Below are positions 20,534-37,131 of a DNA stretch of 64,000 bases, piece after piece. Location: NCBI RefSeq assembly GCF_055900595.2, contig NZ_CM148325.1, one strand, 5' to 3'. A model generated the notes under the pieces. That model ran no database searches and had not been told where the DNA came from. It worked only from the letters and a program-made list of their open reading frames with translations. The position numbers and the translations under genes are program-made. Positions within the stretch are counted from its first letter, which is position 1; each line of letters begins with the position of its first letter.

Positions 20534-21808
20534 GTGGCAAAAAACATTCAAGCCATTCGCGGCATGAACGATTACCTGCCTGGCGAAACGGCCATCTGGC
20601 AGCGCATTGAAGGCACACTGAAAAACGTGCTCGGCAGCTACGGTTACAGTGAAATCCGCTTGCCGATTGTAGAGCAGACCCCGCTATTCAAACGTGCGAT
20701 TGGTGAAGTCACCGACGTGGTTGAAAAAGAGATGTACACCTTTGAGGATCGCAATGGCGACAGCCTGACTCTGCGCCCTGAAGGGACGGCGGGCTGTGTA
20801 CGCGCCGGCATCGAGCATGGTCTTCTGTACAATCAGGAACAGCGTCTATGGTATATCGGGCCGATGTTCCGTCACGAGCGTCCGCAGAAAGGGCGTTATC
20901 GTCAGTTCCACCAGTTGGGCTGCGAAGTTTTCGGTCTACAAGGTCCTGATATCGACGCTGAACTGATTATGCTCACCGCCCGCTGGTGGCGTGCGCTGGG
21001 TATCTCTGAACACGTAACTCTTGAGCTGAACTCTATCGGTTCGCTGGAAGCACGCGCCAATTATCGCGATGCGCTGGTTGCATTCCTTGAGCAGCATAAA
21101 GAAAAGCTGGACGAAGACTGCAAACGCCGCATGTACACTAACCCGCTGCGCGTGCTGGATTCCAAAAATCCGGAAGTGCAGGCCCTTCTCAACGACGCCC
21201 CAGCATTAGGTGACTATCTTGACGAGGAATCTCGTGAGCACTTTGCTGGTCTGTGCAAACTGCTGGAGAGCGCGGGTATCGCTTACACCGTAAACCAGCG
21301 TCTGGTGCGTGGTCTGGATTACTATAACCGTACTGTTTTTGAGTGGGTGACTAACAGCCTCGGTTCCCAGGGCACCGTGTGCGCAGGCGGTCGTTATGAC
21401 GGTCTGGTGGAACAACTGGGTGGTCGTGCAACACCGGCAGTCGGTTTCGCGATGGGCCTCGAACGTCTTGTATTGTTAGTTCAGGCCGTTAATCCGGAAT
21501 TTAAAGCCGATCCTGTTGTCGATATATATCTGGTGGCTTCAGGTGCTGACACACAATCTGCGGCTATGGCATTAGCAGAGCGTTTGCGTGATGAATTACC
21601 GGGCGTGAAACTGATGACCAACCACGGCGGCGGCAACTTTAAGAAGCAGTTTGCCCGTGCTGATAAATGGGGCGCCCGCGTTGCTGTGGTGCTGGGTGAG
21701 TCTGAAGTGGCTAACGGCACAGCAGTAGTGAAGGATTTGCGCTCTGGTGAGCAAACGGCAGTTGCGCAGGATAGCGTAGCCGCGCATTTGCGCACGTTAC
21801 TGGGTTAA
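20534..21808 (+). CDS. hisS: histidyl-tRNA synthetase
   Basis: 424-aa ORF with class II aaRS motifs; initiates at GTG 20534 ([10 protein letters not shown]). Confidence 0.93.
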
Positions 21809-21825
21809 GGAAGGAGAAGGACAGC

Positions 21826-22446
21826 GTGGAAATTTACGAGAACGAAAACGACCAGGTTGAAGCGGTTAAACGCTTTTTTGCTGAAAATGGCAAAGCACTG
21901 GCTGTTGGGGTGATTTTGGGCGTTGGCGCATTGATTGGCTGGCGCTACTGGAACAGCCATCAGGTTGATTCTACACGCTCCGCTTCTCTTGCCTATCAAA
22001 ATGCGGTTACCGCAGTGAGCGAAGGCAAACCGGATAGCATCCCGGCGGCGGAAAAATTTGCTGCTGAAAATAAAAATACCTATGGTGCGCTGGCTTCTTT
22101 GGAACTTGCGCAGCAATTTGTTGACAAAAATGAACTAGAGAAAGCTGCCACCCAGTTACAACAGGGATTGGCGGACACGAGCGATGAAAATCTCAAAGCC
22201 GTGATAAATCTGCGTCTTGCTCGCGTTCAGGTTCAGCTCAAGCAGGCTGATGCCGCGCTGAAAACCCTTGATACCATCAAAGGTGAAGGGTGGGCTGCCA
22301 TTGTTGCCGACCTGCGTGGTGAAGCATTGCTGAGCAAAGGTGATAAGCAAGGTGCGCGTAGTGCATGGGAAGCAGGCGTGAAAAGCGATGTTACCCCGGC
22401 ACTGAGCGAAATGATGCAGATGAAAATTAATAATTTGTCCATCTGA
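21826..22446 (+). CDS. yfgM: TPR-like membrane-anchored protein YfgM
   Basis: 206-aa ORF with N-terminal TM helix, GTG start; conserved upstream of bamB. Confidence 0.85.
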   Translation: MEIYENENDQVEAVKRFFAENGKALAVGVILGVGALIGWRYWNSHQVDSTRSASLAYQNAVTAVSEGKPDSIPAAEKFAAENKNTYGALASLELAQQFVDKNELEKAATQLQQGLADTSDENLKAVINLRLARVQVQLKQADAALKTLDTIKGEGWAAIVADLRGEALLSKGDKQGARSAWEAGVKSDVTPALSEMMQMKINNLSI

Positions 22447-22456
22447 GAGGGACCCG

Positions 22457-23635
22457 ATGCAATTGCGTAAATTACTGCTGCCAGGACTGCTTTCCGTTAC
22501 CCTTTTAAGCGGCTGTTCGCTGTTTAACAGCGAAGAAGATGTGGTAAAGATGTCCCCATTGCCAACCGTTGAAAACCAGTTTACGCCGACCACGGCGTGG
22601 AGCACTTCCGTTGGTAGCGGCATTGGCAACTTCTATTCCAATCTTCATCCGGCACTGGCGGACAACATTGTCTATGCAGCAGACCGCGCTGGTTTAGTAA
22701 AAGCGCTGAATGCGGATGATGGCAAAGAAATCTGGTCTGTCAGTCTGGCCGAGAAAGATGGCTGGTTCTCTAAAGAGCCTGCATTACTTTCTGGCGGCGT
22801 GACCGTGTCTGGCGGACATGTCTACATTGGTAGCGAAAAGGCGCAGGTTTACGCGCTGAATACCAGCGATGGTACTGTGGCATGGCAAACTAAAGTCGCG
22901 GGTGAAGCGCTTTCTCGCCCGGTGGTCAGCGACGGTCTGGTGTTAATCCACACCAGTAACGGTCAGTTGCAAGCCCTGAACGAAGCTGACGGCGCTGTCA
23001 AATGGACAGTTAACCTCGATATGCCTTCACTCTCTTTGCGTGGCGAGTCTGCGCCAGCAACGGCTTTTGGTGCGGCCGTCGTGGGTGGCGATAATGGTCG
23101 CGTCAGCGCAGTGCTAATGGAACAGGGCCAGATGATTTGGCAGCAGCGTATTTCCCAGGCGACCGGTTCTACCGAAATTGACCGCCTGAGCGATGTTGAC
23201 ACGACTCCCGTCATTGTTAACGGCGTTGTTTTCGCGCTGGCCTATAATGGTAACCTGACAGCGCTTGATCTGCGCAGCGGTCAGATTATGTGGAAGCGCG
23301 AACTGGGTTCGGTGAATGATTTCATCGTCGACGGCAACCGCATCTATCTGGTCGATCAAAATGACCGGGTGATGGCGTTGACCATTGATGGCGGCGTTAC
23401 GCTGTGGACACAAAGCGATCTGCTGCATCGCCTGTTGACTTCTCCGGTGCTGTATAATGGCAACCTGGTGGTAGGTGACAGTGAAGGTTATCTGCACTGG
23501 ATCAACGTCGAAGATGGTCGTTTCGTTGCCCAGCAAAAAGTTGATAGTTCCGGTTTCCAGACTGAACCGGTTGCCGCTGACGGCAAACTGCTGATCCAGG
23601 CAAAAGACGGGACTGTGTACTCTATTACACGTTAA
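22457..23635 (+). CDS. bamB: outer-membrane assembly lipoprotein BamB
   Basis: 392-aa ORF with lipoprotein signal LLSGC and PQQ-like beta-propeller repeats. Confidence 0.92.
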   Translation: MQLRKLLLPGLLSVTLLSGCSLFNSEEDVVKMSPLPTVENQFTPTTAWSTSVGSGIGNFYSNLHPALADNIVYAADRAGLVKALNADDGKEIWSVSLAEKDGWFSKEPALLSGGVTVSGGHVYIGSEKAQVYALNTSDGTVAWQTKVAGEALSRPVVSDGLVLIHTSNGQLQALNEADGAVKWTVNLDMPSLSLRGESAPATAFGAAVVGGDNGRVSAVLMEQGQMIWQQRISQATGSTEIDRLSDVDTTPVIVNGVVFALAYNGNLTALDLRSGQIMWKRELGSVNDFIVDGNRIYLVDQNDRVMALTIDGGVTLWTQSDLLHRLLTSPVLYNGNLVVGDSEGYLHWINVEDGRFVAQQKVDSSGFQTEPVAADGKLLIQAKDGTVYSITR

Positions 23636-23752
23636 TCGTCTCTGTCGTTCACTTTGAAAACGGCTCCTGGACAGGGGCCGTTTTCCTGTTTTTAACAACG
23701 ACACGAATATAGCGTGCGTTGTCTGATGATTTATAAAAATGAGGCTTTAAAC

Positions 23753-25225
23753 ATGGTACCTGTGGTCGCGCTTGTCGGGCGCCCTAACGTAGGAAAATCC
23801 ACGTTATTTAACCGTCTAACTCGCACCCGAGATGCGCTGGTTGCGGATTTCCCGGGTCTGACTCGTGACCGTAAGTACGGTCGTGCGGAAATTGAAGGCC
23901 GCGAGTTTATCTGTATTGATACCGGCGGGATTGACGGAACAGAAGACGGTGTAGAAACCCGCATGGCGGAACAGTCGCTGCTGGCGATTGAAGAAGCGGA
24001 CGTCGTACTGTTTATGGTGGATGCGCGCGCGGGCCTGATGCCTGCGGATGAAGCGATTGCCAAACATCTGCGCTCCCGCGAAAAACCCACCTTTCTGGTG
24101 GCAAACAAAACCGATGGTCTGGATCCGGATCAGGCCGTTGTTGATTTCTATTCGCTCGGTTTAGGTGAAATCTATCCTATCGCCGCGTCTCACGGTCGTG
24201 GCGTATTAAGTCTGCTGGAGCACGTGCTGTTGCCGTGGATGGAAGATATCGCACCACAAGAAGAAGTGGATGAAGACGCTGAGTACTGGGCGCAATTTGA
24301 AGCGGAAGAGAACGGCGAAGAAGAAGAGGAAGACGACTTTGACCCGCAAAGTCTGCCAATCAAACTGGCGATAGTGGGTCGTCCTAACGTCGGTAAGTCT
24401 ACACTCACTAACCGTATCCTTGGCGAAGAACGCGTCGTAGTTTACGACATGCCGGGCACTACGCGTGACAGTATCTACATTCCAATGGAACGCGATGGGC
24501 GTGAGTATGTACTCATTGACACTGCGGGCGTACGTAAACGCGGCAAAATCACCGATGCGGTAGAGAAATTCTCCGTAATCAAAACATTGCAGGCGATTGA
24601 AGATGCCAACGTGGTGATGTTGGTGATTGATGCTCGCGAAGGTATTTCCGATCAGGATCTCTCCCTGCTGGGCTTTATTCTCAATAGTGGGCGCTCACTT
24701 GTCATTGTAGTGAACAAGTGGGACGGCCTGAGCCAGGAAGTGAAAGAGCAAGTAAAAGAGACGCTGGACTTCCGTCTGGGCTTTATCGACTTCGCCCGTG
24801 TGCATTTTATCTCTGCATTATACGGCAGCGGCGTTGGTAACCTGTTTGAGTCAGTACGTGAAGCGTATGACAGCTCCACCCGTCGTGTGGGGACATCTAT
24901 GCTGACGCGTATCATGACCATGGCGGTTGAAGATCACCAGCCGCCGCTGGTTCGCGGGCGTCGTGTGAAGCTGAAATATGCCCACGCCGGTGGTTACAAT
25001 CCGCCGATTGTGGTGATTCACGGCAACCAAGTGAAAGACCTGCCTGATTCGTACAAACGCTACTTGATGAATTACTTCCGCAAGTCTCTGGACGTGATGG
25101 GTACGCCGATTCGTATTCAGTTCAAAGAAGGGGAAAACCCATATGCGAACAAGCGTAACACCCTGACGCCGACCCAGATGCGCAAGCGTAAGCGTTTGAT
25201 GAAGCATATTAAGAAAAGTAAGTAA
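23753..25225 (+). CDS. der: ribosome-associated GTPase Der (EngA)
   Basis: ORF 23714..25225; start likely [17 protein letters not shown] at 23753; two tandem GTPase domains (GRPNVGKST twice). Confidence 0.93.
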
Positions 25226-25287
25226 TCACTTATCTGGTTTCCCTTTCCAAACGGAGAGGGAAACTGAACAACAGGCGAGGAGTATTT

Positions 25288-25503
25288 ATGGAACTCAACT
25301 GCCCAACCTGCCATAACCCTCTCGAACGCAACGGTGAAACTGCCCACTGTGCAACTTGTGCCAAAGATTTCACCATTCAGGCGCTTTGTCCTGACTGCCA
25401 TCAGCCATTACAGGTGTTAAAAGCTTGTGGTGCAGTAGATTATTTCTGCCAGCATGGGCACGGTTTAATATCCAAAAAGCGCGTTGAATTTATTGTTGCT
25501 TAA
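25288..25503 (+). CDS. yfgJ: zinc-ribbon protein YfgJ
   Basis: 71-aa ORF with CPTC..CATC..CPDC..C Cys pairs. Confidence 0.85.
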   Translation: MELNCPTCHNPLERNGETAHCATCAKDFTIQALCPDCHQPLQVLKACGAVDYFCQHGHGLISKKRVEFIVA

Positions 25504-25712
25504 TATTATTTAAATATATGGTGTAATCATTTGTATTCATAATATAAATGATTGCATCCTATTTTATTTGTTGAAACGCAAATGTAAGTGAGCGAAATCA
25601 CTGTGTTATAAATTTAAGATTATATTTAGTTTTCCTGGCGTGCCTTTCTGAATAATCTGGAATAGAATATTAGAGCTAATTTTAAGCATTATTAATGTCA
25701 CAGGGGATGTGC

Positions 25713-27887
25713 ATGCTGCGATGGAAACGCTGTATTATGCTAACATTTATCTCTGGAGCTGCTTTTGCGGCTCCAGAGATAAATGTTGAGCATAAAGAAT
25801 CGTTACCTGATTTAGGTAGTCAGGCCGCACAACAGGAAGAGCAAACTAACAAGGGTAAATCGCTAAAAGAGCGTGGTGCCGATTACGTCATTAACTCTGC
25901 CACGCAAGGGTTTGAAAACCTGACACCCGAGGCGCTGGAGTCCCAGGCCAGAAGCTATCTGCAAAGTCAAATTACCTCTACGACACAATCTTATATTGAG
26001 GATACACTCTCCCCCTACGGTAAGGTCCGAACGAATCTTTCTCTTGGTCAGGGCGGCGATCTGGATGGCAGTTCCATCGATTATTTTGTTCCCTGGTATG
26101 ATAATCAAACTACTGTTTATTTCAGCCAATTTTCTGCACAACGAAAAGAAGATCGTACGATCGGGAATATTGGGCTTGGTGTAAGACATAATTTTGATAG
26201 ATGGTTATTGGGTGGAAATATATTTTATGATTATGACTTTACCCGTGGGCATCGCCGTTTAGGTTTAGGCGCCGAAGCGTGGACTGATTATTTAAAATTC
26301 TCTGGCAACTATTATCACCCGCTTTCTGACTGGAAAGACTCCGAAGATTTCGATTTTTATGAGGAGCGCCCGGCGCGCGGCTGGGATATTCGCGCCGAAG
26401 CCTGGCTACCTGCTTACCCGCAGCTTGGCGGTAAAATCGTTTTCGAACAGTATTACGGTGATGAAGTCGCGCTTTTTGGCACCGATAATCTGGAGAATGA
26501 TCCCTTCGCCGTCACGCTGGGTGTGAAATACCAGCCCCTACCACTCATTGCCGTAGGAACGGATTTCAAAGCCGGCACTGGCGATAATACCGATCTTTCT
26601 GTTAACGCAACGCTGAACTACCAGTTTGGTGTCCCGCTCAAAGACCAGCTTGATCCTGACAAAGTGAGCGCGGCTCACTCGCTCATGGGCAGCCGTCACG
26701 ACTTTGTTGAACGTAACAACTTTATTGTTCTGGAATACAAAGAGAAAGATCCCCTCGATGTCACTTTGTGGCTGAAAGCCGATGCGACGAATGAACATCC
26801 CGAGTGCGTGATTAAAGATACGCCAGAAGCAGCCATCGGGCTGGAAAAATGTAAGTGGACCATTAACGCGCTCATTAATCATCACTACAAAATCGTTGCT
26901 GCCTCCTGGCAGGCGAAAAACAATGCTGCACGTACGCTGGTGATGCCGGTTATCAAAGAAAATACGCTTACCGAAGGGAACAACAATCACTGGAATCTGG
27001 TGCTGCCTGCCTGGCAGTACAGCTCTGATAAAGCCGACCAGGAAAAACTCAATACCTGGCGGGTACGCCTGTCGCTGGAAGATGAAAAGGGCAATCGGCA
27101 GAACTCCGGCGTGGTGGAAATTACCGTTCAGCAGGACCGTAAAATTGAGCTCATTGTTAACAACATCGCCAATGTACCGGATGAGAACAATCACAGCCAC
27201 GAAGCCAGCGCGCAAGCGGATGGTGTAGATGGTGTCGTCATGGATCTCGACGTTACCGATAGTTTTGGCGACAACACTGACCGTAACGGTAATGTCTTGC
27301 CGCAGGATAATCTCAGCCCGCAGCTGTTTGACGCCAATGATAAAAAAGTGACGCTGACAAATAAACCCTGCACCACCGAGGTGCCGTGCGTTTTTATCGC
27401 CAAACAAGATAAAGAAAAGGGGACCGTTACGCTCTCCAGTACGTTGCCCGGCACCTTCCGCTGGAAAGCGAAAGCCGCCCCTTATGATGACAGTAACTAT
27501 GTTGACGTAACGTTCCTGGGTTCTGACATCGGCGGGCTGAATGCTTTTATCTACCGCGTTGGTGCAGCTAAGCCCGTCAATCTTATCGGCAACAAAGAAC
27601 CGTTGCCTCTCAATAGCCGCTATCGCTTTGTGCTGTGGCGCGACGCTAACAAAGACGGCGTGTTCCAGCTTTCTGAGAAGCTCACTGACGATGAGATGAA
27701 ACAGTATGACTATCAGTGGGAATTCACGGGGCATAGCGTAAATGGCAATACCGGTGCGCAAACCAATACCACGAACGTCGATATAGAGATCCCGGCAACC
27801 AACAAGGAAGCGGCAGCAAAGTTTAGTGCCCAGGTAACCGATGGCGTGCAGGGATACGGTTTGCAGGTCAATTACAGCAAGAAATAG
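25713..27887 (+). CDS. sinH: intimin/invasin-family inverse autotransporter (SinH-like)
   Basis: ORF 25695..27887; ATG 25713 has SD AGGGGA and gives signal peptide MLRWKRCIMLTFISGAAFA; N-terminal beta-barrel-type region with Ig-like passenger domains; island position between yfgJ and xseA. Confidence 0.75.
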   Translation: MLRWKRCIMLTFISGAAFAAPEINVEHKESLPDLGSQAAQQEEQTNKGKSLKERGADYVINSATQGFENLTPEALESQARSYLQSQITSTTQSYIEDTLSPYGKVRTNLSLGQGGDLDGSSIDYFVPWYDNQTTVYFSQFSAQRKEDRTIGNIGLGVRHNFDRWLLGGNIFYDYDFTRGHRRLGLGAEAWTDYLKFSGNYYHPLSDWKDSEDFDFYEERPARGWDIRAEAWLPAYPQLGGKIVFEQYYGDEVALFGTDNLENDPFAVTLGVKYQPLPLIAVGTDFKAGTGDNTDLSVNATLNYQFGVPLKDQLDPDKVSAAHSLMGSRHDFVERNNFIVLEYKEKDPLDVTLWLKADATNEHPECVIKDTPEAAIGLEKCKWTINALINHHYKIVAASWQAKNNAARTLVMPVIKENTLTEGNNNHWNLVLPAWQYSSDKADQEKLNTWRVRLSLEDEKGNRQNSGVVEITVQQDRKIELIVNNIANVPDENNHSHEASAQADGVDGVVMDLDVTDSFGDNTDRNGNVLPQDNLSPQLFDANDKKVTLTNKPCTTEVPCVFIAKQDKEKGTVTLSSTLPGTFRWKAKAAPYDDSNYVDVTFLGSDIGGLNAFIYRVGAAKPVNLIGNKEPLPLNSRYRFVLWRDANKDGVFQLSEKLTDDEMKQYDYQWEFTGHSVNGNTGAQTNTTNVDIEIPATNKEAAAKFSAQVTDGVQGYGLQVNYSKK

Positions 27888-27942
27888 GGTCGGCGCCATG
27901 GCTGATCGGGCCACCGCTGAATATTAATCAAGGAGAGTGTTT

Positions 27943-28935
27943 ATGAAACCTGATATGAAACGTGGCCTGACAAAAGTCGCGCTCGCGTTGATGCTGGCTG
28001 GATACTGTGCCGTACCAGCCGCTATGGCGGAAGATGCCGCCTGGGTCGCCAGTGGAGCGACCGCTGAATTCGAAGGGACTATACCCTGGCTCTATCGCGA
28101 AGGGGGGAATGCCACGATTAACTCGGAAGATGCGGATCACATTAAAGTGACGTCTGATGGTAAAGGGACCCGCCCTGCAGGTAGCGAGACGGATAAACGC
28201 CTTTACTCAGGGGATACCATCACGCTGGGATGGGATATCGGCGATACCGAAGGGGATGTTGATGATGGTCCCGCAGGCATTGATGCGAAAACGACGGCCA
28301 CTATCAAATGGTACAGCTACAGCAATAATGCGGGTGGCGATAAAACGGAGCTGACCGCAGCGGCAGGCAAGACGAGTTATAAACTCACTGATGACGATCG
28401 TGGGCGTTATATCGGTGTTGAAATCCAGCCCATCACCCAGACCGGTAATCCCTTCGAGGGAACGTCGCTGACTCTGCTGGATATTTCAACGGCCAGCGGT
28501 GGCGGCAGCGATACGGACAATGTCGATCCCGGCCCGGTTGTGAACCAGAATCTGAAAGTTGCCATCTTCGAGAAAGGCACCACTACCAACCTTATCGGTG
28601 GTAACACGGCCATTGCGCTTAATAAAACGTATGTGGCCAAACTGTACTCGGATGAAAACCAGAACGATAAATACGACGCAGGTACGGATATGGACGTTAC
28701 CGCTAACTATGACTTTGCATGGGTCTTTAACGGTAACAGTAAACAACTTGCTGCGGCGGGCGGTATTGCTAATGCCAGCTTCGATAACAATGACATTGTT
28801 ATCCCGCAAACTAACGAAGAAGCAAGAACCAGCCTTAACGGTAGTGATCGTAATGGTAAGAGTGGTCTTGCGATCCCGGCAAACGGCGACGGCGTTCAGG
28901 GCTATACGCTGTCTATCATTTACAAACACCACTAA
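27943..28935 (+). CDS. secreted SinI-like protein sharing a C-terminal module with SinH
   Basis: ORF 27937..28935; ATG 27943 preceded by AGGAG; signal peptide; C-terminus DGVQGYTLSIIYKHH parallels the SinH C-terminus DGVQGYGLQVNYSKK. Confidence 0.7.
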   Translation: MKPDMKRGLTKVALALMLAGYCAVPAAMAEDAAWVASGATAEFEGTIPWLYREGGNATINSEDADHIKVTSDGKGTRPAGSETDKRLYSGDTITLGWDIGDTEGDVDDGPAGIDAKTTATIKWYSYSNNAGGDKTELTAAAGKTSYKLTDDDRGRYIGVEIQPITQTGNPFEGTSLTLLDISTASGGGSDTDNVDPGPVVNQNLKVAIFEKGTTTNLIGGNTAIALNKTYVAKLYSDENQNDKYDAGTDMDVTANYDFAWVFNGNSKQLAAAGGIANASFDNNDIVIPQTNEEARTSLNGSDRNGKSGLAIPANGDGVQGYTLSIIYKHH

Positions 28936-29043
28936 TGCGCACAACAGCATTCCCTTACGGGAATGCTGTTTTCGCCTGTTTTGCTTAGCGACGCGTTAAG
29001 CAAAACAGGTTGATGTTTTGTTTATCATGCTGGAGTTTTCTAC

Positions 29044-32000
29044 ATGTCGGTATGTCTGAAACCAGGGAAAATCATTATGCTTCTGGGCATGTTGGCAGCT
29101 TTTATGCTGTCTGACTTTGCACGGGCAGGGGCGGAATGGCAGACATATCCTGATTCTACAGGCGAGTTTAACGGAACCGTTCCTTTTGCCGACAGCGCCA
29201 GCGTACCCGTCTATCAGGGCAGTGTTCAGCTTAATCCTGCTGAATCTCATGATGTCGGGTTTTCTGCTAAACCGAATGAATTTAGCGTTGACGATGACGC
29301 TGCTAACCTGATTGTCGCTAATCCTCAGGACAATGAAGGCGACCAGTTTTCCACACCACCTGCGCTGCGCTGGGAAAATCAAACACCCCCTACCGTCAGC
29401 CTGGTGTGGGCCGATGCCGCCACGCCCGATGTGCCCCTTAACCCACAACCTATTGCTAACCGTAGCTTTTGCGCTCAGGGGCTGGCCGGACGCTCGCTGG
29501 TGGCCTGGCCGCAGATTGATGCGCAGCAAACCCTCCCACTGCTCTACCTGTTGACCTCGACCGGCTATCCCTATGCGGGGACGGTGGCGCTGGTGGACCA
29601 GAAAGTGACCCTGAACATCGCGCCCGCGCAGGGCGATTTAATCTCGGTGAGCGCCAGCGGTTATAACGAAACGATCGCGGCGGCAAAAACCACCGTTGGC
29701 GACACCATCACGCTCACCGTCACCACTAAAGATTGTCAGGGCAACGTCGCGGGTAATATTCCGTTTATTATCAAACGTAAAGATGCTGAAAATCGCCAGG
29801 GGGCAGTGAATAATAGTGCGCCAGTGGTACTGGATAGCACCGAGTTAACGACGACGGCTACCGAATACCATGGCACCTCTGATGCCAACGGCACGGCCAC
29901 CATCACGGTGAGCCAACCGAACGGCCCTGGCGTCAAAACGCCACTGGTGGTCAGCATTTCCGGCATTGCGCAAACCAGCGAAACCGCGGTGATTTTTACG
30001 GTGCTCACCAGCCCGGACGCGGCGCAGGCTACGATGTGGGGCCATATGGCGGAAACGGTAGAAGCGCACGGTTACACCTTCAGTCGACCAAAGCTGGCGG
30101 CAGAAGTCAGCAATGAAAGCGCCACGGTCGTCGATCACAACGAAACCTGGTCCACCTTCACCTGGAGCGGCGCAGATAACCACTGCACCGTGCTGCCCGG
30201 CATGCGCCACTTCGGCGCGCTGGCGACCGTTATCCCCACATCGGTGCAGACAGTCCTTGGCTGGCCGATGCAGGGGGATTATTACTGGTCATCGCTGGCG
30301 GGCACCACCGGGCAGCACCATGCGGCGGATGTCTCTAACCGTGGTGAAACGCAAAAGCCGGATAGCACCCCGTTTCTTGTAAGCTGCGTGGATAAACCCG
30401 CGCCTGATGTCGAGCCGAAAATCGTCCTTACGCCCGAAAACTATGATGATACGGCACAGGCGATGAAATCGCAGGTGGGCGAAGACGCCACGATGCGTCT
30501 GACGATCACCGACAATAAAAATAACGATCAACCACTGGCGTATTACTACTTCTCGCTGCATCTGGATGACGGCGTTAACCGCAAAAATCAAACCGATTCC
30601 GCCTGGGAAGCCCATCCGGTGCAGATTACTGGTGGTTCGAATTTGCAACAGGTTGATGCTCACACCTATGAAGGCATGACCGATGTCAACGGTCAGGCTT
30701 CGCTAACCCTGAGTCAGCCCGACGGCGCAGGCGTGAAAACCCATATCACGGCGAAAATGCGCAGCAATTTTACGGCTACAGATGCCAAAGACGTGATTTT
30801 TACTGTGATCACCAGCCCGGACAGCGACAAGGCGCGGATGTGGGGCCATATGCGCGGCATTGTTGTATCTGGCAGTCTGTTCAAACGCCCAGTGCTGGCG
30901 GATGAAACTGAGCATGAACTGGGATCGGTGCGGGAAAATAACGAAGACTGGGCGCTGTTCGATCAAGACACCAGTATGCAGGCTGAATGCGGCGTCGGCC
31001 ATACGCCAAGTCAGAGTGGGCTGGAAAGCCTTTTTTCAGCCCATCCCGGTAACGCGATTGGCACTGAGTATGGCTGGCCCACCGCACAACAGAACTACCT
31101 AAGCGCGGTGGAGCAAGCCACGCATTCATCGGTGAATTTGGCGAACGGAAACGTCGACAGCTACCCCGGCTTTAAGCGAAATTACCTCTCCTGTTCGGGC
31201 AATGAGATGGTCGCGAAGGTTGAAGTGAGCACCGATCACGATGTCACCCCTGGCACCAAAGCGCAGGCCAAAGTGGGAGACACCGTCGTGATGACCGTGC
31301 GTACGGTTAACGCGCTCAATAATACCCCCGTTCCCTTTACTGCCTTCACCATCACTAAAGGCATGGGGTATAACCGAGCGGGGCTGGTGAGCGGGTTTGA
31401 TGACCCGAGCAGCGGCGCAATCTCGATGAATGGCACGCAATACGGCACATCTCAGCCGTCGATGGTCTACACAGGTACGACAGATGCACAAGGCGTGGCA
31501 ACGGTCGAAATAGAGCAACCCCAGGGGGTGGGGTTAAGAACCGTGCTGAGCATTACGCCGGTCAATTCCCATCTACCAAATGCCATTAATTACAATGTTA
31601 TTTTTACCACCCCAACCAGCCCGGATGTTAGTGGGGCGCAGATGTGGGGCCATATGGATGAAACGATTACCGTTGATTCATTAACCTTTACCCGGCCTAA
31701 GCTGGCAGCAGAAATCACCAGTCCGGATGGCACATTAACGGAAAAAAACGAAGTCTGGGCGCGCGTTAGCCAGGCCAGTACGGCCATTACCAGTAAAGGC
31801 GGTTGCGGAACCAATATGCTGCCGCGCCGCTCCCAGCTCAGTGCGCTCTATGACGCTAATAACGGTAATGCGGTGCAAGCCACACACGGCTGGCCGACGC
31901 AGCGTCAGCCCTACTGGAGCAGTTCCCCCGCGGATTTAACGCCGCACAATTACACCATTGCCCTGGATAACGGCGCACAGGCCATCGGCGGCGATACGCC

Positions 32001-35000
32001 GGTTTACGTCAGTTGCCTGACGACGGCGAACAAACCTGCCAGCAGCATTACGCTGGATGTGGTTGATAACGCACAGTGGGCTGCCGGAAATAACGCGGCG
32101 AAGCTGAAAAAAGGCGAAACGCTACAGGTTAAGGTAACGGTAAAAGATGCGCAGGGTAATCCGCTCACGGATATGCCATTTAAACTGAGTCGCGGAGACG
32201 GTTATACCCGCACGGGCGAAAAACATATTGCCGGTAGTGGCGATGCGCTGGTGGCACCGGTGGTGATTAACAGTGGGCTGGCGGATGAAACGACGTTGAA
32301 CGACACCGCGGGATTTTATACTGCCATGACCGGCAGCGACGGCAGCAAAATCCTCAATATTACCCGCCCGGATACTCACGGTACCAAAACGGCGCTGACG
32401 GCGACGTTGTATTCCGATCCAACAAAAAAAGACAGCCTGGATACAATCTTTACTGTGGTCACCAGCCCGGATAGTAGCAAAGCGAAAATGTGGGGCCATA
32501 TGCCGGAAACCTTAACGGCGGCAGATGGTACCGTTTTTAAACGCCCATTGCTGATAAAGGAACTGTCGAGTCAGACCGGGCGAACAGCAATATTCGAAGA
32601 CAATGAAAACTGGGCGCTGTTTACTCAAACCCAGGCGAACTCAACCAGTAACGGCTGCGGCACTAGCTATGTTCCCACTCAGGCAGGGTTGTTGTCGTTG
32701 TTTGATAATCACGCTGGCAATACCATCAAAACCGTCCAGGGCTGGCCGGTAGTAACGCGTTATTTATCCAGCACGCCCGACAACACTGGCATGGAACAGC
32801 GTAACTACAAAGCGGTGGATCTCGGCAATGGCACCAGTGCCATGGTGTCAACGTCGACACTGGATCTACTGACCTGCCAAACCACGCCAGTCACCACGGT
32901 GAGCCAGATTCTGCTGGAAGCGGCAGATCCTGCGGCTCTGATTTATGTTGACGATACACTGAGTGTGGTTAAAGCCAAAAAAGGCGAAGAGTCGGTAGTG
33001 CGCGTCACCACGAAAGATGCGCAAGGTAACCCGGTTGGCAATGCGGCGTTTATTCTGAAACGTGCCACCAGCATAAACCGGAGGTATACATCAGCGACAG
33101 CGAGTGTAGGTGCGCTGACTGTAACCGATGCCTGGGGAAATACGCGGAGTAATTTTCAGGCAACAACTGAAATGATCTATGGCGTGACGGGGGCTGACGG
33201 GTCGACAACCTTTACGCTGAAACAGGATAACAGTACCGGGTTAAGAACCGATCTCACGGCATCACTGGATGGCGTCAGCAGCGTTCAGGCGACCCTCCCG
33301 ATGGTCTTTACCGTGGTAACCAGTCCAGATTCTCCTAAAGCGAATTTTTGGGGACACATGCCTGAAACGGTAACGGCCGCTGATGGCATGACGTATAAGC
33401 GACCATTACTGTTTAAAGAACTTACCAATAACTATGCACGCTATAGCACTTTTGAGAATGGTGAAGATTGGGCAAGATTCAGTGTGGTTCAGTCAAATAA
33501 CACCGATATGGATGGATGCGGTGCAGAGTATATGCCGACACTGGATGGCCTGCAGTCCTTGTACAGTGCCAATAGTGGTAATGCGATGAGTACAGTGCAG
33601 GGATGGCCGGTAGCTAATAGTTATCTCACCAATACACCGAGTGATACGCAACCCAGTAACCGTTATTACAATGTGGTGCAACTGAATTCCGGCGCGGTTT
33701 CTCAAATCGTGACCACCGTGCTGGCATTACAAACTTGTCGCACAACGCCTGCGGTTATTGCCAGCCAGGTGTCTCTGGAGCCTGCGGACGCCACGCAATT
33801 CGTTAAGGTTGACGATACTCTGAGCGCCATTAAGGTGAAAAAAGGCGATGAGGTTGTTATTCGCGTCACGACCAAAGATGCGCAAGGAAACCCGGTGGGT
33901 AATACGCCGTTTACACTGAAGCGTAGCAGTTCTTTCAATCGCCAGAATGCATTAGTGACGATGCAGACGGTTTCGGTGACACCCGCAGCGGCCAGTACAG
34001 TTGATACCAATGCATCGGCCACCGTGTATGGCGTGACCGGGCCAGACGGAACCACCACGATGACACTCCGACAGGATGCGTCTACTGGACTCAAAACCGA
34101 CTTTTATGCTCTGTTGAACGATACCGGCGTGTCGTCGAACACCTTGCCAGTGATCTTCACCGTCGTCACCAGCCCGGATACACCGCTGGCGGCCAACTGG
34201 GGGCATATGGCGGAAACCTTTACCAGCAGCAAGGGCGTCACCTTCAAACGGCCTTTCCTCAAAGCTGAACTTTCTGGTGGTACGGCGGTAACGACCAATA
34301 ATGAAGTCTGGTCGCGCCTGACAGCAACGGAGAAAACGGATGCCAGCAAGGCGGGTTGTGATGAGAGTTATCAACCGCTGATGACTGACATGCAGGGGTT
34401 GTATGCGGATTACCCTAACAACCAGTTGGGCACGGTGCTCGGCTTGCCGACTTCCGCCGGGTATATGTGGGCCTACGACATGATGACGGTTTCTGGCAGC
34501 AGCTGGAGCAACCAGGCATATTCGCTCGTTAATGGTCAGACAGTTCAGGCATCGTCCAGTTATACGGCGGTAGTGATGTGCCTGGTGGAACCGCATACCG
34601 TTCCGGCGATGATAGAGATCACTTCAACAGCACAGGATGCGGCAAAAACGGTCAGCAATGGTGGTCGACCGAGCGCCGTAGCGAAGAAAGGTGAGACGAT
34701 TCCGCTGACGGTGACCGTACGTGATAGCACCGGGAATCCGGTACCCTACGCCGACTTTACCCTCACGCGTGGAACGACGCTGGATCGCTCGAAAGCAACC
34801 GTTAACTCGAGTGCGGACGATCTTACCGTGAAGTCATTGATACCCGCGAACAGCGACGCTGGGCTGACGGCAAATGGGGCAAAAGTGCTCAGAACAACGG
34901 GCAGTGATGGCACTGCCACCTTTGAAGTGAGCCAGAATGCCACGACAGGTCTGGCGACACCGATAACCGTCACGCTGGCGCGCGATACAACCAAAACCGC

Positions 35001-37131
35001 CACGCTGGATGTTATCTACACGGTGATAACCAGCCCGGACTCACCGAGCGCGAAATTCTGGGGACACATGCCGGACACCTTTACCAGTTCGGCAGGCGTC
35101 ACCTTCAGACGACCGCTCCTGAAAGCCGAAGCGACTTCAGGGTCATCGATTAGCACTAACGGTAATGGTGAAGTGTGGTCGTATATGAGCAACGTTCAAA
35201 ATTTAACATCGACAGATTGTCCGCTGGAGAATCAACCGCGCAGTAATGAATTGTTGGATTTGTATAATGATCATCCCAACGGCGCGATAATGACTGACCT
35301 GGGGCTGCCGATATATGCAGGCAAGTGGTGGGCTTATGATATGGTCATGCCGGATTTATATACGTGGCAGTATCAGACTGTCAGCCTGAGCGCAGGAGAT
35401 ATCGCGAAGAGCTCGGCAAACAACGCGCTGATGCTTTGCCTGGCGAAGCCGCATCCGGCAGGCGTCAGCGTAATGTTGACGTCATCCGCAATGGATAACG
35501 CCAGAACCCTCAGTAATGGCGGGCGACCCAGCGCGTCAGTGAAAAAAGGTAACCCACTGCCAATTGTGGTGACGGTCAAAGATCGTGATGGCAACCCGCT
35601 GGCGGGAGAGGCCGTGACGCTCAGGCGTGGTTCAGCGATGAGTCGTTCAGGAGCAGGAGTGGGCACGCCGGCAAATGCAATGACGTTGACAGAATTGACA
35701 CCTGTGTCGGCGGAGTTTTCTCTGGCCGCACACGATACGCAATGGCAAGGTTTCACCGGTAGTGATGGTACGGCCACTTTCAATGTTGAACAGCCTGAGA
35801 CCATCGGCCTGGCTATCTCGTTCACCGCTATACTGGCGCGAGATGTCGCAACTACCAGCGTCATTGATGCGATCTTTACCGTCGTCACCAGCCCGGATTC
35901 CGCAATGGCGACCTACTGGGGCCATATGCCGGATACGGTAACGGCGGAAAACGGCGTGGTCTTTGAACGGCCTAAATTGTTGAAAGAGCTGCCGTCGAGC
36001 GCCGGAGTCAGTCAGGTGACGGATAACAATGAAGTGTGGCCGTTGTTTAAGGCAACGCAAAGGGAAGATAGCAGCCTCAGTCCTTGTGAAGCGGCACGTC
36101 GGCCATTGAGCGATGATTTATTATCGCTCTACGCGCGCTATCCGGGGAACACGCTGACGACTCAAATCGGCTGGTCTACGAAGTATGCATGGTGGGCACT
36201 GGATAACAAGCAGGGGAATGCCCTGGTTGTCAGTCTGAATAATGGTTTTGAGTCGTCGACGGCGAGTACGGGGTATCAGGGATGTCTGGTCAATCCCCGC
36301 GCGACCGTCTCCAGCGTCACGCTGACATCGACGGCGATAGATGCCACTACGCAGGCGGCGAAGGTAAAAAAAGGTGAAGCCGCGCCCGTCGTTGTTACCG
36401 TAAAAGACAGCGCCGGGAAGCCGGTACCTAATGTCGCTTTCACCTTAAAACGTGGTGATGCCGTGCCGCGTAACAGCGGGGCGACGTTGTATGGTGATGT
36501 TGCGGCGATGGATGATATGACGGTACAACCTGCCAGCGGGACGGTGGTAACGCTGGCTGACAGTGGGAATACGATCGACGGTGTGACAGGGGCGGACGGT
36601 ACGGCAAGTTTTGCCGTTCGTCAGGATAATACGCCAGGATATAAAACGCCGTTGACGGTGACGCTGACGGATAACGCCACAATAACGGCGACGCTGGATA
36701 CGATTTTCACCGTGCCGACCAGCCCGAATGTCGCCACGGCGTATTTCTGGGGGCATATGGCGGATACCGCCACCGTAAGTGGCAAGACGTTACATCGCCC
36801 GCTATTGAAATCAGAGTTGCCGTCAGGGGCTACAGCGGCAGTAGCGCCAACGGTGAATAATGAAATCTGGGCGCTGGCACATGTGATCGATGCTCAAAAA
36901 TGGGATATTGCAAAGCAGTGCGGTGACTTTAGTAGAGCACCGAGCTATACCGATTTACAGTCATTGCATAGCGGTTTTAGCGCGCTGGGATGGCCATCAT
37001 CGATAAGCTTCCCCTATTTCTCTACCGATCGGGCCGGTTCGTTCTATTGTGGTATGGATGAAGGGGCGGGGACACAAAACTGCGGTATTCAGGCATCCAG
37101 TACCGCAGGGTTTGCGACTTGTTTCCAGTAG
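29044..37131 (+). CDS. ratA: giant repetitive secreted/surface protein (RatA-like)
   Basis: 2695-aa ORF with N-terminal signal peptide; nine tandem ~270-aa units each carrying FTV(V/L)TSPD..(M/F)WGHM motifs. Confidence 0.8.
29650..37100 (+). repeat. nine in-frame tandem coding repeats (~0.81-0.86 kb period) within the ratA-like gene
   Basis: WGHM signature recurs near nt 30033, 30838, 31642, 32490, 33347, 34197, 35058, 35917 and 36757. Confidence 0.8.

Follow-up and report, generated by a model that had tools for sequence, protein, structure and literature searches.

The stretch of DNA analyzed here (the window; 64,000 nt of an E. coli chromosome, contig NZ_CM148325.1 of RefSeq assembly GCF_055900595.2) carries the gene order der, yfgJ, sinH, sinI, ratA-like and xseA, in which the adjoining sinH and sinI genes lie in a CS54-like island bounded by der/yfgJ and xseA. 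All features described below are on the plus strand. The first of the two genes, sinH (25713..27887), codes for an intimin-like inverse autotransporter of 724 aa from the RefSeq start, and the second, sinI (27943..28935), for a 330-aa SinI family autotransporter-associated protein, both being recognized by RefSeq annotation and by the NCBIfam models NF033423 and NF040711, respectively. They are followed by a gene for a giant RatA-like adhesin of 2695 aa (29044..37131; NF011844, 5420 bits), in which Pfam identifies nine BIg21 plus InvE_AD repeats. The spacer between sinH and sinI is 55 nt long and contains a ribosome-binding site, AAGGAG, read from the sequence at 27930..27935, i.e., 7 nt upstream of ATG 27943. 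Because this site fits ATG 27943, we favor it over GTG 27937 as the likely start of SinI, in agreement with the 330-aa length given in the initial annotation. A consensus scan found no terminator-like site between sinH and sinI and predicts a terminator-like hairpin in the gap between sinI and the ratA-like gene (28974..29020; 17 pairs followed by a T-rich tail). With its short spacer and the hairpin after sinI the layout is operon-like, and co-transcription of sinH and sinI has been reported in the literature. Residue numbers below are those of the 730-aa SinH ORF, which opens at 25695, and of the 332-aa SinI ORF, which begins at GTG 27937; RefSeq protein numbers are lower by 6 for SinH and by 2 for SinI.

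The RefSeq-annotated locus of E. coli EC42405 is 99.2% identical to that of the window. The sinI allele of the window is rare in E. coli, occurring at 95% identity or more in 10 of 5426 genomes. The island of Pseudocitrobacter vendiensis is 95.9% identical to that of the window, whereas its flanks are just 78% identical.

SinH is a full-length match to the SinH equivalog model (NF033423; 1473.7 bits against a cutoff of 999), with aa 7-730 aligning to profile positions 1-730; like that of SinI below, its score bears out the family name proposed in the initial annotation. Its outer-membrane β-barrel (25899..26720, aa 69-342) is detected by the Pfam IAT_beta model (PF11924, E=1.9e-105) and matches the solved barrels of invasin and intimin (4e1t, E=2.5e-72; 4e1s, E=1e-64). 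SinH is, hence, an inverse autotransporter, with an N-terminal outer-membrane barrel and a C-terminal passenger. Among Escherichia SinH alleles the C-terminal module of this passenger is 75% identical, as against 92% for the remaining passenger. By this comparison, the module is the distal and most variable part of SinH and has the look of a tip under diversification.

SinI scores 377.2 bits on its own family model (NF040711; cutoff 165), with aa 8-329 aligning to profile positions 1-299. It starts with a predicted Sec-type signal peptide, MKPDMKRGLTKVALALMLAGYCAVPAAMA, followed by EDAA (27943..28029), which we read from the sequence and which shows a pattern conserved in the family alignment. 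The mature N-terminus displays the motif ..W..S.AT.EF.GTIPW.. (28033..28092, aa 33-52), in common with the RatA-like protein. Next comes a middle Ig-like domain (28138..28491, aa ~68-185) that is not found in SinH; it is modeled by AlphaFold with a pLDDT of about 70-89 and gives a weak, below-cutoff match to Pfam IG_AIR9 (E=1.4e-4). The rest of the protein is the C-terminal module considered below. Neither IAT_beta nor any other barrel model of Pfam matches SinI, and a sequence search of the PDB with SinI returned no match at E up to 10. Lipoprotein anchoring of SinI was considered and rejected, as a Tyr precedes the conserved Cys, leaving no lipobox. With neither barrel nor lipobox, and with no C-terminal aromatic β-signal, the suggestion that the shared region serves as an anchoring domain finds no support. 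SinI evolves far more rapidly in E. coli than SinH does, with 33-47% identity versus 75-92%.

The central observation at this locus is that SinH and SinI end in the same module. A parallel between the two C-termini had been noted from the sequence, and pairwise alignment finds it significant: BLASTP aligns SinH 628-727 with SinI 217-329 at 31% identity and 42% positives (E=1e-9), and the Smith-Waterman score is 119 versus 31.0 +/- 5.5 in shuffles (z=16, Gumbel p about 4e-10), with none of 5000 shuffles reaching it. Family models cross-match in both directions: SinH aa 624-727 aligns with the final 104 positions of the SinI model (E=9.5e-23), and SinI aa 213-331 with positions 623-729 of the SinH model (E=3.7e-11). 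A profile-profile comparison (hhalign) of the SinI-family alignment with the SinH-passenger alignment yields a single match, between SinI 203-332 and SinH 612-730, with a probability of 99.7% and E=2.3e-25. On these statistics, the C-terminal modules of SinH and SinI are homologous copies of one Ig-like domain. BLASTP, hhalign and the NCBIfam cross-matches place the SinH copy at 27531..27884 (aa 613-730; AlphaFold pLDDT 82.8) and the SinI copy at 28546..28932 (aa 204-332; model pLDDT about 90). The common region is, thus, real and somewhat longer than the roughly 90 residues first ascribed to it, the SinH copy measuring about 118 aa and that of SinI about 129 aa. The span 27600-28935 assigned to it initially also takes in the whole of sinI, the greater part of which has no equivalent in SinH.

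Outside the module, the remaining SinH passenger and the remaining SinI score at the shuffle mean and show no relation; neither profile-profile comparison nor the shuffle test detected a SinH counterpart of the SinI middle domain, and the sinH and sinI copies share no DNA-level similarity. The initial proposal that the smaller protein derives from a duplicated adhesin tip, therefore, survives for the last domain, where the duplication is ancient. The copying does not extend to the whole of SinI: its N-terminal motif recurs in the RatA-like protein, and its middle domain lacks a detectable counterpart in SinH.

We predict from the models that the module adopts a six-stranded Ig-like β-sandwich with one short helix. 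Structure prediction had been suggested as a check on the resemblance, and the AlphaFold models of the SinH and SinI copies have the same order of strands and helix. The module alignment further reveals two motifs, IPxTNxEA and DGVQGY, which are invariant in both copies. A sequence search of the PDB with the module profile gave no match at E up to 10, i.e., no close solved relative.

Between strands 2 and 3 of the SinH module lies a predicted EF-hand-like calcium-binding loop, DANKDGVFQLSE (27642..27677, aa 650-661), whose putative counterpart in SinI, from the module alignment and motif comparison, is DENQNDKYDAGTD (28651..28689, aa 239-251). The SinH residues D650-E661 fit the pattern DxNxDGxxDxxE at positions 1, 3, 5, 6, 9 and 12 and form a confident loop in the AlphaFold model; the loop of the window SinI is non-canonical, with N-D for D-G and T at position 12. 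Through the SinH aa 650-661 segment the module profile matches many SdrD_B/SpaA repeats, the Gram-positive, prealbumin-like, CnaB-type repeats of PF17210 and PF17802. These repeats are β-sandwich adhesin domains, as the module is predicted to be, and their strand, DxNxDGxxDxxE loop and following strand align with it (hhalign probability 94%, E=1.1e-7, 37 columns). By analogy with them, the loop after strand 2 of the SinH module would bind calcium and stiffen the domain; it is the 37-column motif match from which we infer calcium binding. At Pfam thresholds we rejected the module as a member of the SdrD_B family, SdrD_B and SpaA_4 each matching one of 30 module sequences short of the gathering threshold (E=0.11 and 0.13, respectively), and a local motif resemblance is what we retain.

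The phyletic pattern of the module is narrow and regular. In 18 of 18 complete loci, sinH is followed by sinI and both proteins bear the module; these come from seven enterobacterial genera, with Escherichia, Citrobacter, Pseudocitrobacter, Superficieibacter, Leminorella and Buttiauxella joined by an unclassified Enterobacteriaceae bacterium, and a contig-truncated Lelliottia locus (L020) has the same layout. In a much more distant pair, a 722-aa inverse autotransporter and its 294-aa partner, each protein likewise bears the module (E=1.3e-12 and 1.4e-19, respectively). A SinI-type gene lies directly downstream of an inverse autotransporter gene in all 18 complete loci and in two further loci, L023 and L024. 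In the L024 autotransporter, which keeps just a terminal GDQGFRLQV strand, the module was rejected, as the resemblance is limited to 12 residues at the end (E=0.073, not significant); we counted this distant pair against a partnership of the two proteins. Occurrence of the module in other adhesins had also been raised, and a search of 1.84 billion proteins with the module profile found essentially none: the complete module is confined to the C-termini of SinH-like (720-750 aa) and SinI-like (280-410 aa) proteins, and the module HMM did not match the RatA-like protein. Nothing but fragments from E. coli came back from a word-indexed search in which the SinI module was the sole query, so that this search was uninformative as to distribution.

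In Escherichia, Citrobacter, Pseudocitrobacter, Superficieibacter and Leminorella, the copies from SinH and those from SinI fall into clades of their own. SinH copies average 61% identity with one another and SinI copies 56%, and a SinH copy compared with a SinI copy averages 37%. The separate clades point, therefore, to an old duplication: by this tree pattern the module was duplicated ahead of the divergence of these enterobacterial genera, and since then neither copy has left the C-terminus. Buttiauxella is the exception, in that its SinH and SinI copies cluster together, with 54.7% identity within one locus (L021).

That SinH and SinI resemble each other is already known, being both published and part of the current genome annotation, in which NCBI names SinI an "autotransporter-associated protein"; to this extent our finding is the rediscovery of an annotated, published feature. 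Heinz 2016 credits the similarity to Kingsley 2003 (PMC4943183), and SinI has been described as lacking a barrel and resembling the Ig-like domains of SinH (PMC4943183; Goh 2019, PMC6714894). The SinH/SinI pair of the Salmonella CS54 island and the IatB/EcSMS35_2660 pair of E. coli treated in those papers are the same genes as those of the window. The literature speaks of a likeness to "the IgSF domains" generally, whereas here it is limited to the last domain. What is new here is the exact limits of the shared module.

The closest analog is the ZirTSU system, which likewise consists of an inverse-autotransporter gene followed by genes for signal-peptide proteins without a barrel. In Salmonella, ZirS secretion is strictly ZirT-dependent (Gal-Mor 2008, PMC2270342), and ZirS and ZirU are said to resemble the Ig-like passenger domains of ZirT (Prehna 2012, via PMC4943183). 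SinI has the corresponding trait, a likeness to the passenger of its transporter (the profile match above), in its last domain only. The SinI locus differs in also having the giant RatA-like adhesin.

A second comparison is with intimin and invasin, whose C-terminal tip is a C-type lectin-like domain that binds Tir or β1-integrin. The SinH module occupies the same distal position in the passenger, is likewise the most variable part and is likely to have a similar role; it differs in being predicted to form a plain Ig-like sandwich. A soluble paralog of the tip encoded alongside it is not known for either intimin or invasin. Pfam and PDB searches gave no match between the intimin/invasin tip and the module, and both proteins are absent among the structural matches listed (the top 50-60 per search). 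A divergence gradient along intimin has been described (PMC4943183).

As to function, we lean slightly toward SinI being a SinH-linked secreted partner, related to SinH as ZirS is to ZirT. SinI would leave the cytoplasm by Sec and then cooperate with SinH, as a partner that is either secreted or associated with the surface; the shared domain would be the business end of both proteins, with the two either binding a common target or SinI docking on the SinH tip through a like-with-like contact. A role as a binding domain, as initially suggested, is plausible for this distal and most variable part of SinH. A two-partner model for SinH and SinI has already been proposed (PMC4943183), and IatB, the E. 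coli SinH ortholog, has been discussed in the same terms (PMC6714894). In favor of a partnership we count the homology of the two modules and its limits, the operon-like layout, the conserved pairing of the genes, the age of the duplication, the confinement of the complete module to this pair, the predicted calcium loop, the variable tip and the ZirS precedent. Counting against it, IatB/SinH promotes biofilm formation without the downstream gene (PMC6714894), and the structural work quoted by Heinz has the barrel pore plugged by its own linker, because of which the passage of a partner across the outer membrane is unexplained (PMC4943183). The SinI-like protein L027, which has no neighboring inverse autotransporter, also counts against it.

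A possible, if rather doubtful, alternative is that the copies have diverged in function, SinI being an independent small secreted or periplasmic Ig protein that retains an old adhesin tip fold but has neither a physical nor a secretory link to SinH. The orphan L027 gene, the SinH/IatB biofilm function without the downstream gene (PMC6714894), the faster evolution of SinI within E. coli and the mere 35-40% or so identity between copies in long-separated clades are all in keeping with such a history; it fits poorly with the strict gene order and tight spacing in the 18 complete loci and one distant pair, the lack of a terminator-like site between the genes, the invariance of the surface-loop motifs IPxTNxEA and DGVQGY in both copies and the confinement of the full module to SinH-like and SinI-like proteins. 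An improbable third reading is that SinI remains in the periplasm as a dedicated chaperone or template for the folding or export of the SinH passenger, and perhaps of RatA, its SinH-like domain then not being an extracellular binding module. Ig-superfamily folds are often periplasmic chaperones, according to Heinz (PMC4943183), and SinI has a signal peptide, no recognizable outer-membrane targeting feature and a motif in common with RatA just after that peptide; but ZirS, the closest experimental precedent, is released to the medium (PMC2270342), SinH functions without the downstream gene (PMC6714894), and the rapid divergence of SinI alleles is more in keeping with an exposed antigen than with a housekeeping chaperone. 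An origin of the resemblance in chance, in biased composition or in a recent conversion event involving the neighboring genes is very improbable and, for the window copies, refuted by the shuffle and profile statistics, the absence of nucleotide similarity in the window and the separate clades in all other genera, although the Buttiauxella cluster could represent local homogenization or a separate duplication.

The partner reading bears on vaccine design, as SinH ranks among the leading candidates for a vaccine against extraintestinal pathogenic E. coli. Its protective part, the fragment SinH-3, spans aa 602-724 of the 724-aa SinH, and the vaccine paper makes no mention of SinI. By its residue limits, the SinH-3 antigen corresponds to the module paralogous with SinI, a correspondence that is new here. 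Were SinI secreted, it might absorb or widen an anti-SinH-3 response; were it to dock on SinH, disruption of that complex may be the way in which antibodies act.

The N-terminal motif links SinI to the ratA-like gene product. The SinI family and RatA N-termini align in hhalign with a probability of 89.8% (E=1.8e-6, 23 columns), the RatA copy falling at 29119-29190 (aa 26-49), and 18 of 21 distant SinI-like proteins have the motif as well. It becomes significant only with profiles, BLASTP of SinI against the RatA N-terminus being marginal (E=0.23); as a profile-level match, this common motif is new here. Mechanistically, it is still a puzzle how an inverse autotransporter might aid the export of another protein (PMC4943183), and the delimited module and the SinI-RatA motif offer concrete handles on it. 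Speculatively, sinH-sinI-ratA could be a type Ve multi-partner system, with a SinH-recognized address tag on SinI and RatA and with SinI acting on the SinH tip, a reading that we regard as unlikely. The tag, LKxGxWQ..sT..I.GT.P, directly after the SinI and RatA signal peptides, would be read for export or for docking at the surface, either by SinH itself or in a step that depends on it, comparable to a TPS domain in two-partner secretion, and the SinI C-terminal domain would cap, extend or compete with the SinH tip; as this tip is the SinH-3 antigen, secreted SinI could then be a cross-reactive decoy or a second target. A further marginal BLASTP similarity, between the SinI middle domain and the first BIg21 repeat of RatA (E=0.008), would give a second, putative link.

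The inverse autotransporter SinH and the protein SinI encoded directly downstream share a C-terminal Ig-like domain (the module): the two copies are homologous domains of common fold with definable limits and age and a conserved pairing. It spans ~118 aa in SinH (27531-27884, + strand) and ~129 aa in SinI (28546-28932, + strand), with the greater length in the window allele of SinI being an insertion, SDRNGKSGLAIPAN, that precedes the last strand in the module alignment. The similarity of the two C-termini proposed in the initial annotation is real and was correctly read: pairwise BLASTP aligns SinH residues 628-727 with SinI 217-329 (31% identity, E=1e-9), the Smith-Waterman score of 119 stands against 31.0 +/- 5.5 for shuffled sequences (z=16, reached by 0/5000, Gumbel p ~4e-10), and the curated NCBIfam SinI and SinH models each match the C-terminus of the other protein (E=9.5e-23 and 3.7e-11). 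Profile-profile comparison of 15 SinI-family members with 15 SinH passengers recovers SinI 203-332 against SinH 612-730 as the sole match (probability 99.7%, E=2.3e-25). In the shuffle test the SinH passenger residues 345-612 and SinI 31-203 score at the shuffle mean; hence, the matches are confined to the C-termini and a single domain is common to the two proteins.

The sinH ORF (25695-27887, + strand; RefSeq start 25713) scores 1473.7 bits on the NCBIfam SinH equivalog and codes for an IAT_beta barrel (Pfam, aa 69-342), while the sinI ORF (27937-28935, + strand) reaches 377.2 bits with the SinI family model. The sinI ORF opens at a GTG at 27937; the start that fits the ribosome-binding site AAGGAG (27930-27935) is the ATG at 27943, which gives the 330-aa RefSeq protein and leaves a 55-nt spacer after the sinH stop codon (27885-27887). 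Next comes a ratA-like gene (29044-37131, + strand) specifying a 2695-aa protein (5420 bits, NCBIfam) with nine BIg21 and InvE_AD repeats (Pfam). The locus corresponds in E. coli to the CS54 island of Salmonella. In strains such as EC42405, which are 99.2% identical over 25200-29100, the RefSeq gene order is der, zinc-ribbon protein, sinH, "SinI family autotransporter-associated protein", "adhesion domain-containing protein", xseA and guaB. A consensus scan found no terminator-like site between sinH and sinI, and a strong terminator-like hairpin (28974-29020; a stem of 17 pairs, including 7 G-C, followed by a T-rich tail) separates sinI from the ratA-like gene, suggesting that sinHI is transcribed as a unit and that read-through may control ratA. 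A 2025 review describes sinH and sinI as co-transcribed.

The shared module is already known. Heinz et al. 2016 (PMC4943183) report the resemblance of SinI to the SinH Ig-like domains and credit it to Kingsley 2003, and the NCBI family name for SinI already records the association with an autotransporter; our finding is thus a rediscovery, to which we add, modestly, the exact delimitation, a link to a vaccine antigen and an N-terminal motif. Heinz et al. likened the pair to ZirT/ZirS/ZirU, where ZirS secretion is strictly ZirT-dependent (Gal-Mor et al. 2008, PMC2270342), and proposed that SinI and Rat-like proteins are inverse autotransporter substrates (PMC4943183), a view restated for the E. 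coli orthologue IatB, which was shown to promote biofilms in the absence of the downstream gene (Goh et al. 2019, PMC6714894). We give roughly even chances to a model in which SinI would be exported by Sec and then act as a SinH-linked partner, its C-terminal domain doing the job of the SinH tip either by attaching to the target that the tip binds or by docking on the tip itself. No other part of SinH varies as much between Escherichia alleles as the module (75% identity vs 92% in the remaining passenger), yet loop motifs in it are invariant across the SinH and SinI copies; both observations favor a functional tip. Counting against the partner model is the barrel pore, reported to be plugged in structural work cited by Heinz et al. 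(PMC4943183). Alternatively, the two modules might have taken on independent functions after their divergence, or SinI could play the role of a periplasmic chaperone.

Many of the weaker profile matches of the module are large Gram-positive-type adhesins with SdrD_B/SpaA/CarboxypepD_reg repeats, repeatedly aligned via profile positions ~31-66. Here a DxNxDGxxDxxE loop links two strands (e.g., kFqLWnDvNGDGaYDAGD), and hhalign relates the module to SdrD_B/SpaA-type repeats over 37 columns only (probability 94%, E=1.1e-7). As the modules fall short of the Pfam models for these repeats, we treat the resemblance as a shared motif rather than as family membership. Loops of the SdrD B repeat type bind calcium; the SinH equivalent, D650-A-N-K-D-G-V-F-Q-L-S-E661, is a confident loop in the predicted model and is probably a calcium loop. 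The SinH module (ORF residues 613-730, 27531-27884) further corresponds to SinH-3, a published vaccine fragment that is protective and comprises aa 602-724 of the 724-aa SinH. The vaccine paper (PMC9937491) never mentions SinI, which might cross-react with the SinH-3 response or act as a decoy.

A survey of one genome per bacterial species yielded 22 loci, 18 of them complete, from Escherichia, Citrobacter, Pseudocitrobacter, Superficieibacter, Leminorella, Buttiauxella and an unclassified Enterobacteriaceae bacterium. In all 18, sinH is followed by sinI and both end in the module; the large gene after sinI matches the RatA-like protein of the window in 17, the exception being a Buttiauxella locus (L021) with a SinI-like paralogue in this position. 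The contig-truncated Lelliottia locus has the same layout. Module identity averages 61% between SinH copies, 56% between SinI copies and 37% across the two (34-42% inside one locus). In a neighbor-joining tree of 38 module sequences SinH and SinI form separate clades, Buttiauxella excepted, and no DNA-level similarity between the two copies was found in the window; hence, the duplication is older than the split between these genera. For the window, an origin of the resemblance by chance or by gene conversion is refuted. The Buttiauxella modules cluster together (54.7% identity in L021), suggesting local conversion or a separate duplication. The question raised in the initial annotation, whether other adhesins carry the module, is answered essentially in the negative: among the 113 matches in 1.84 billion representative proteins, the complete module is found only at the C-terminus of proteins of 720-750 aa (SinH-like, with IAT_beta) or 280-410 aa (SinI-like, lacking any Pfam domain), so that it is private to this transporter/partner pair. 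Three distant matches were traced to their contigs: one is a 722-aa inverse autotransporter followed by a 294-aa partner, both with the module; another is an 898-aa autotransporter followed by a 332-aa partner with the full module on the partner only, the terminal strand alone of the autotransporter showing a non-significant resemblance; and the third is a SinI-like gene standing alone.

Right after their signal peptides, SinI (aa 33-52, 28033-28092) and the RatA-like protein (aa 26-49, 29119-29190) share a motif with the consensus LKxGxWQ..sT..I.GT.P (hhalign probability 89.8%, E=1.8e-6), whose core I-x-G-x-x-P recurs in 18/21 distant SinI-like proteins. Since Heinz et al. (PMC4943183) regarded the Rat N-terminus as "highly divergent", the motif may be new to the literature; it is a candidate recognition signal, possibly for common export or docking. 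The motif is also present in a third gene, a SinI-like paralogue, of Buttiauxella (L021 6904-8070) and Lelliottia (L020 1758-2864), in which another C-terminal tip, by eye Big_2-like plus DUF1566/Lcl_C-like, replaces the SinH-like module. The middle Ig-like domain of SinI (aa 68-185, 28138-28491) weakly matches RatA-like residues 192-292, around the first BIg21 repeat (BLASTP pair, 31% over 107 aa, E=0.008), and Pfam IG_AIR9 (E=1.4e-4, below cutoff). One possible reading is that SinI is a mosaic, with pieces related to each of its neighbors.

The gene sinI occurs in 1692/5426 complete E. coli genomes as two deeply divergent allele classes, with ~93% nucleotide identity to the sinI of the window in 743 genomes (including ST131) and 60-80% in 939. 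Between the classes protein identity is 33-47% per SinI domain and 75-92% for SinH (compared with loci L019, of E. coli E69, and L005); judged by these values, the rate of evolution is far higher in SinI than in SinH. Over 25806-34931 the island shares 95.9% identity with its equivalent in Pseudocitrobacter vendiensis (L001 4231-13357), as against only 78% for the flanking bamB-der-yfgJ (21620-25508). The window is E. coli chromosome, with flanks that are ordinary for the species: the bamB-der flank is matched in 5425/5426 complete E. coli genomes, in nearly every one with 95-100% identity. The window sinI allele is rare (at least 95% identity in 10/5426). Together, these contrasts point to a recent transfer of the sinH-sinI-ratA island allele between genera. 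In E. coli E69 (L019 3358-6315), an insertion of ~800 bp coding for an IS1 InsB-like protein divides sinH into ORFs of 230 aa and 488 aa; the SinH adhesin is accordingly predicted to be inactivated in this strain, with sinI and ratA still intact.
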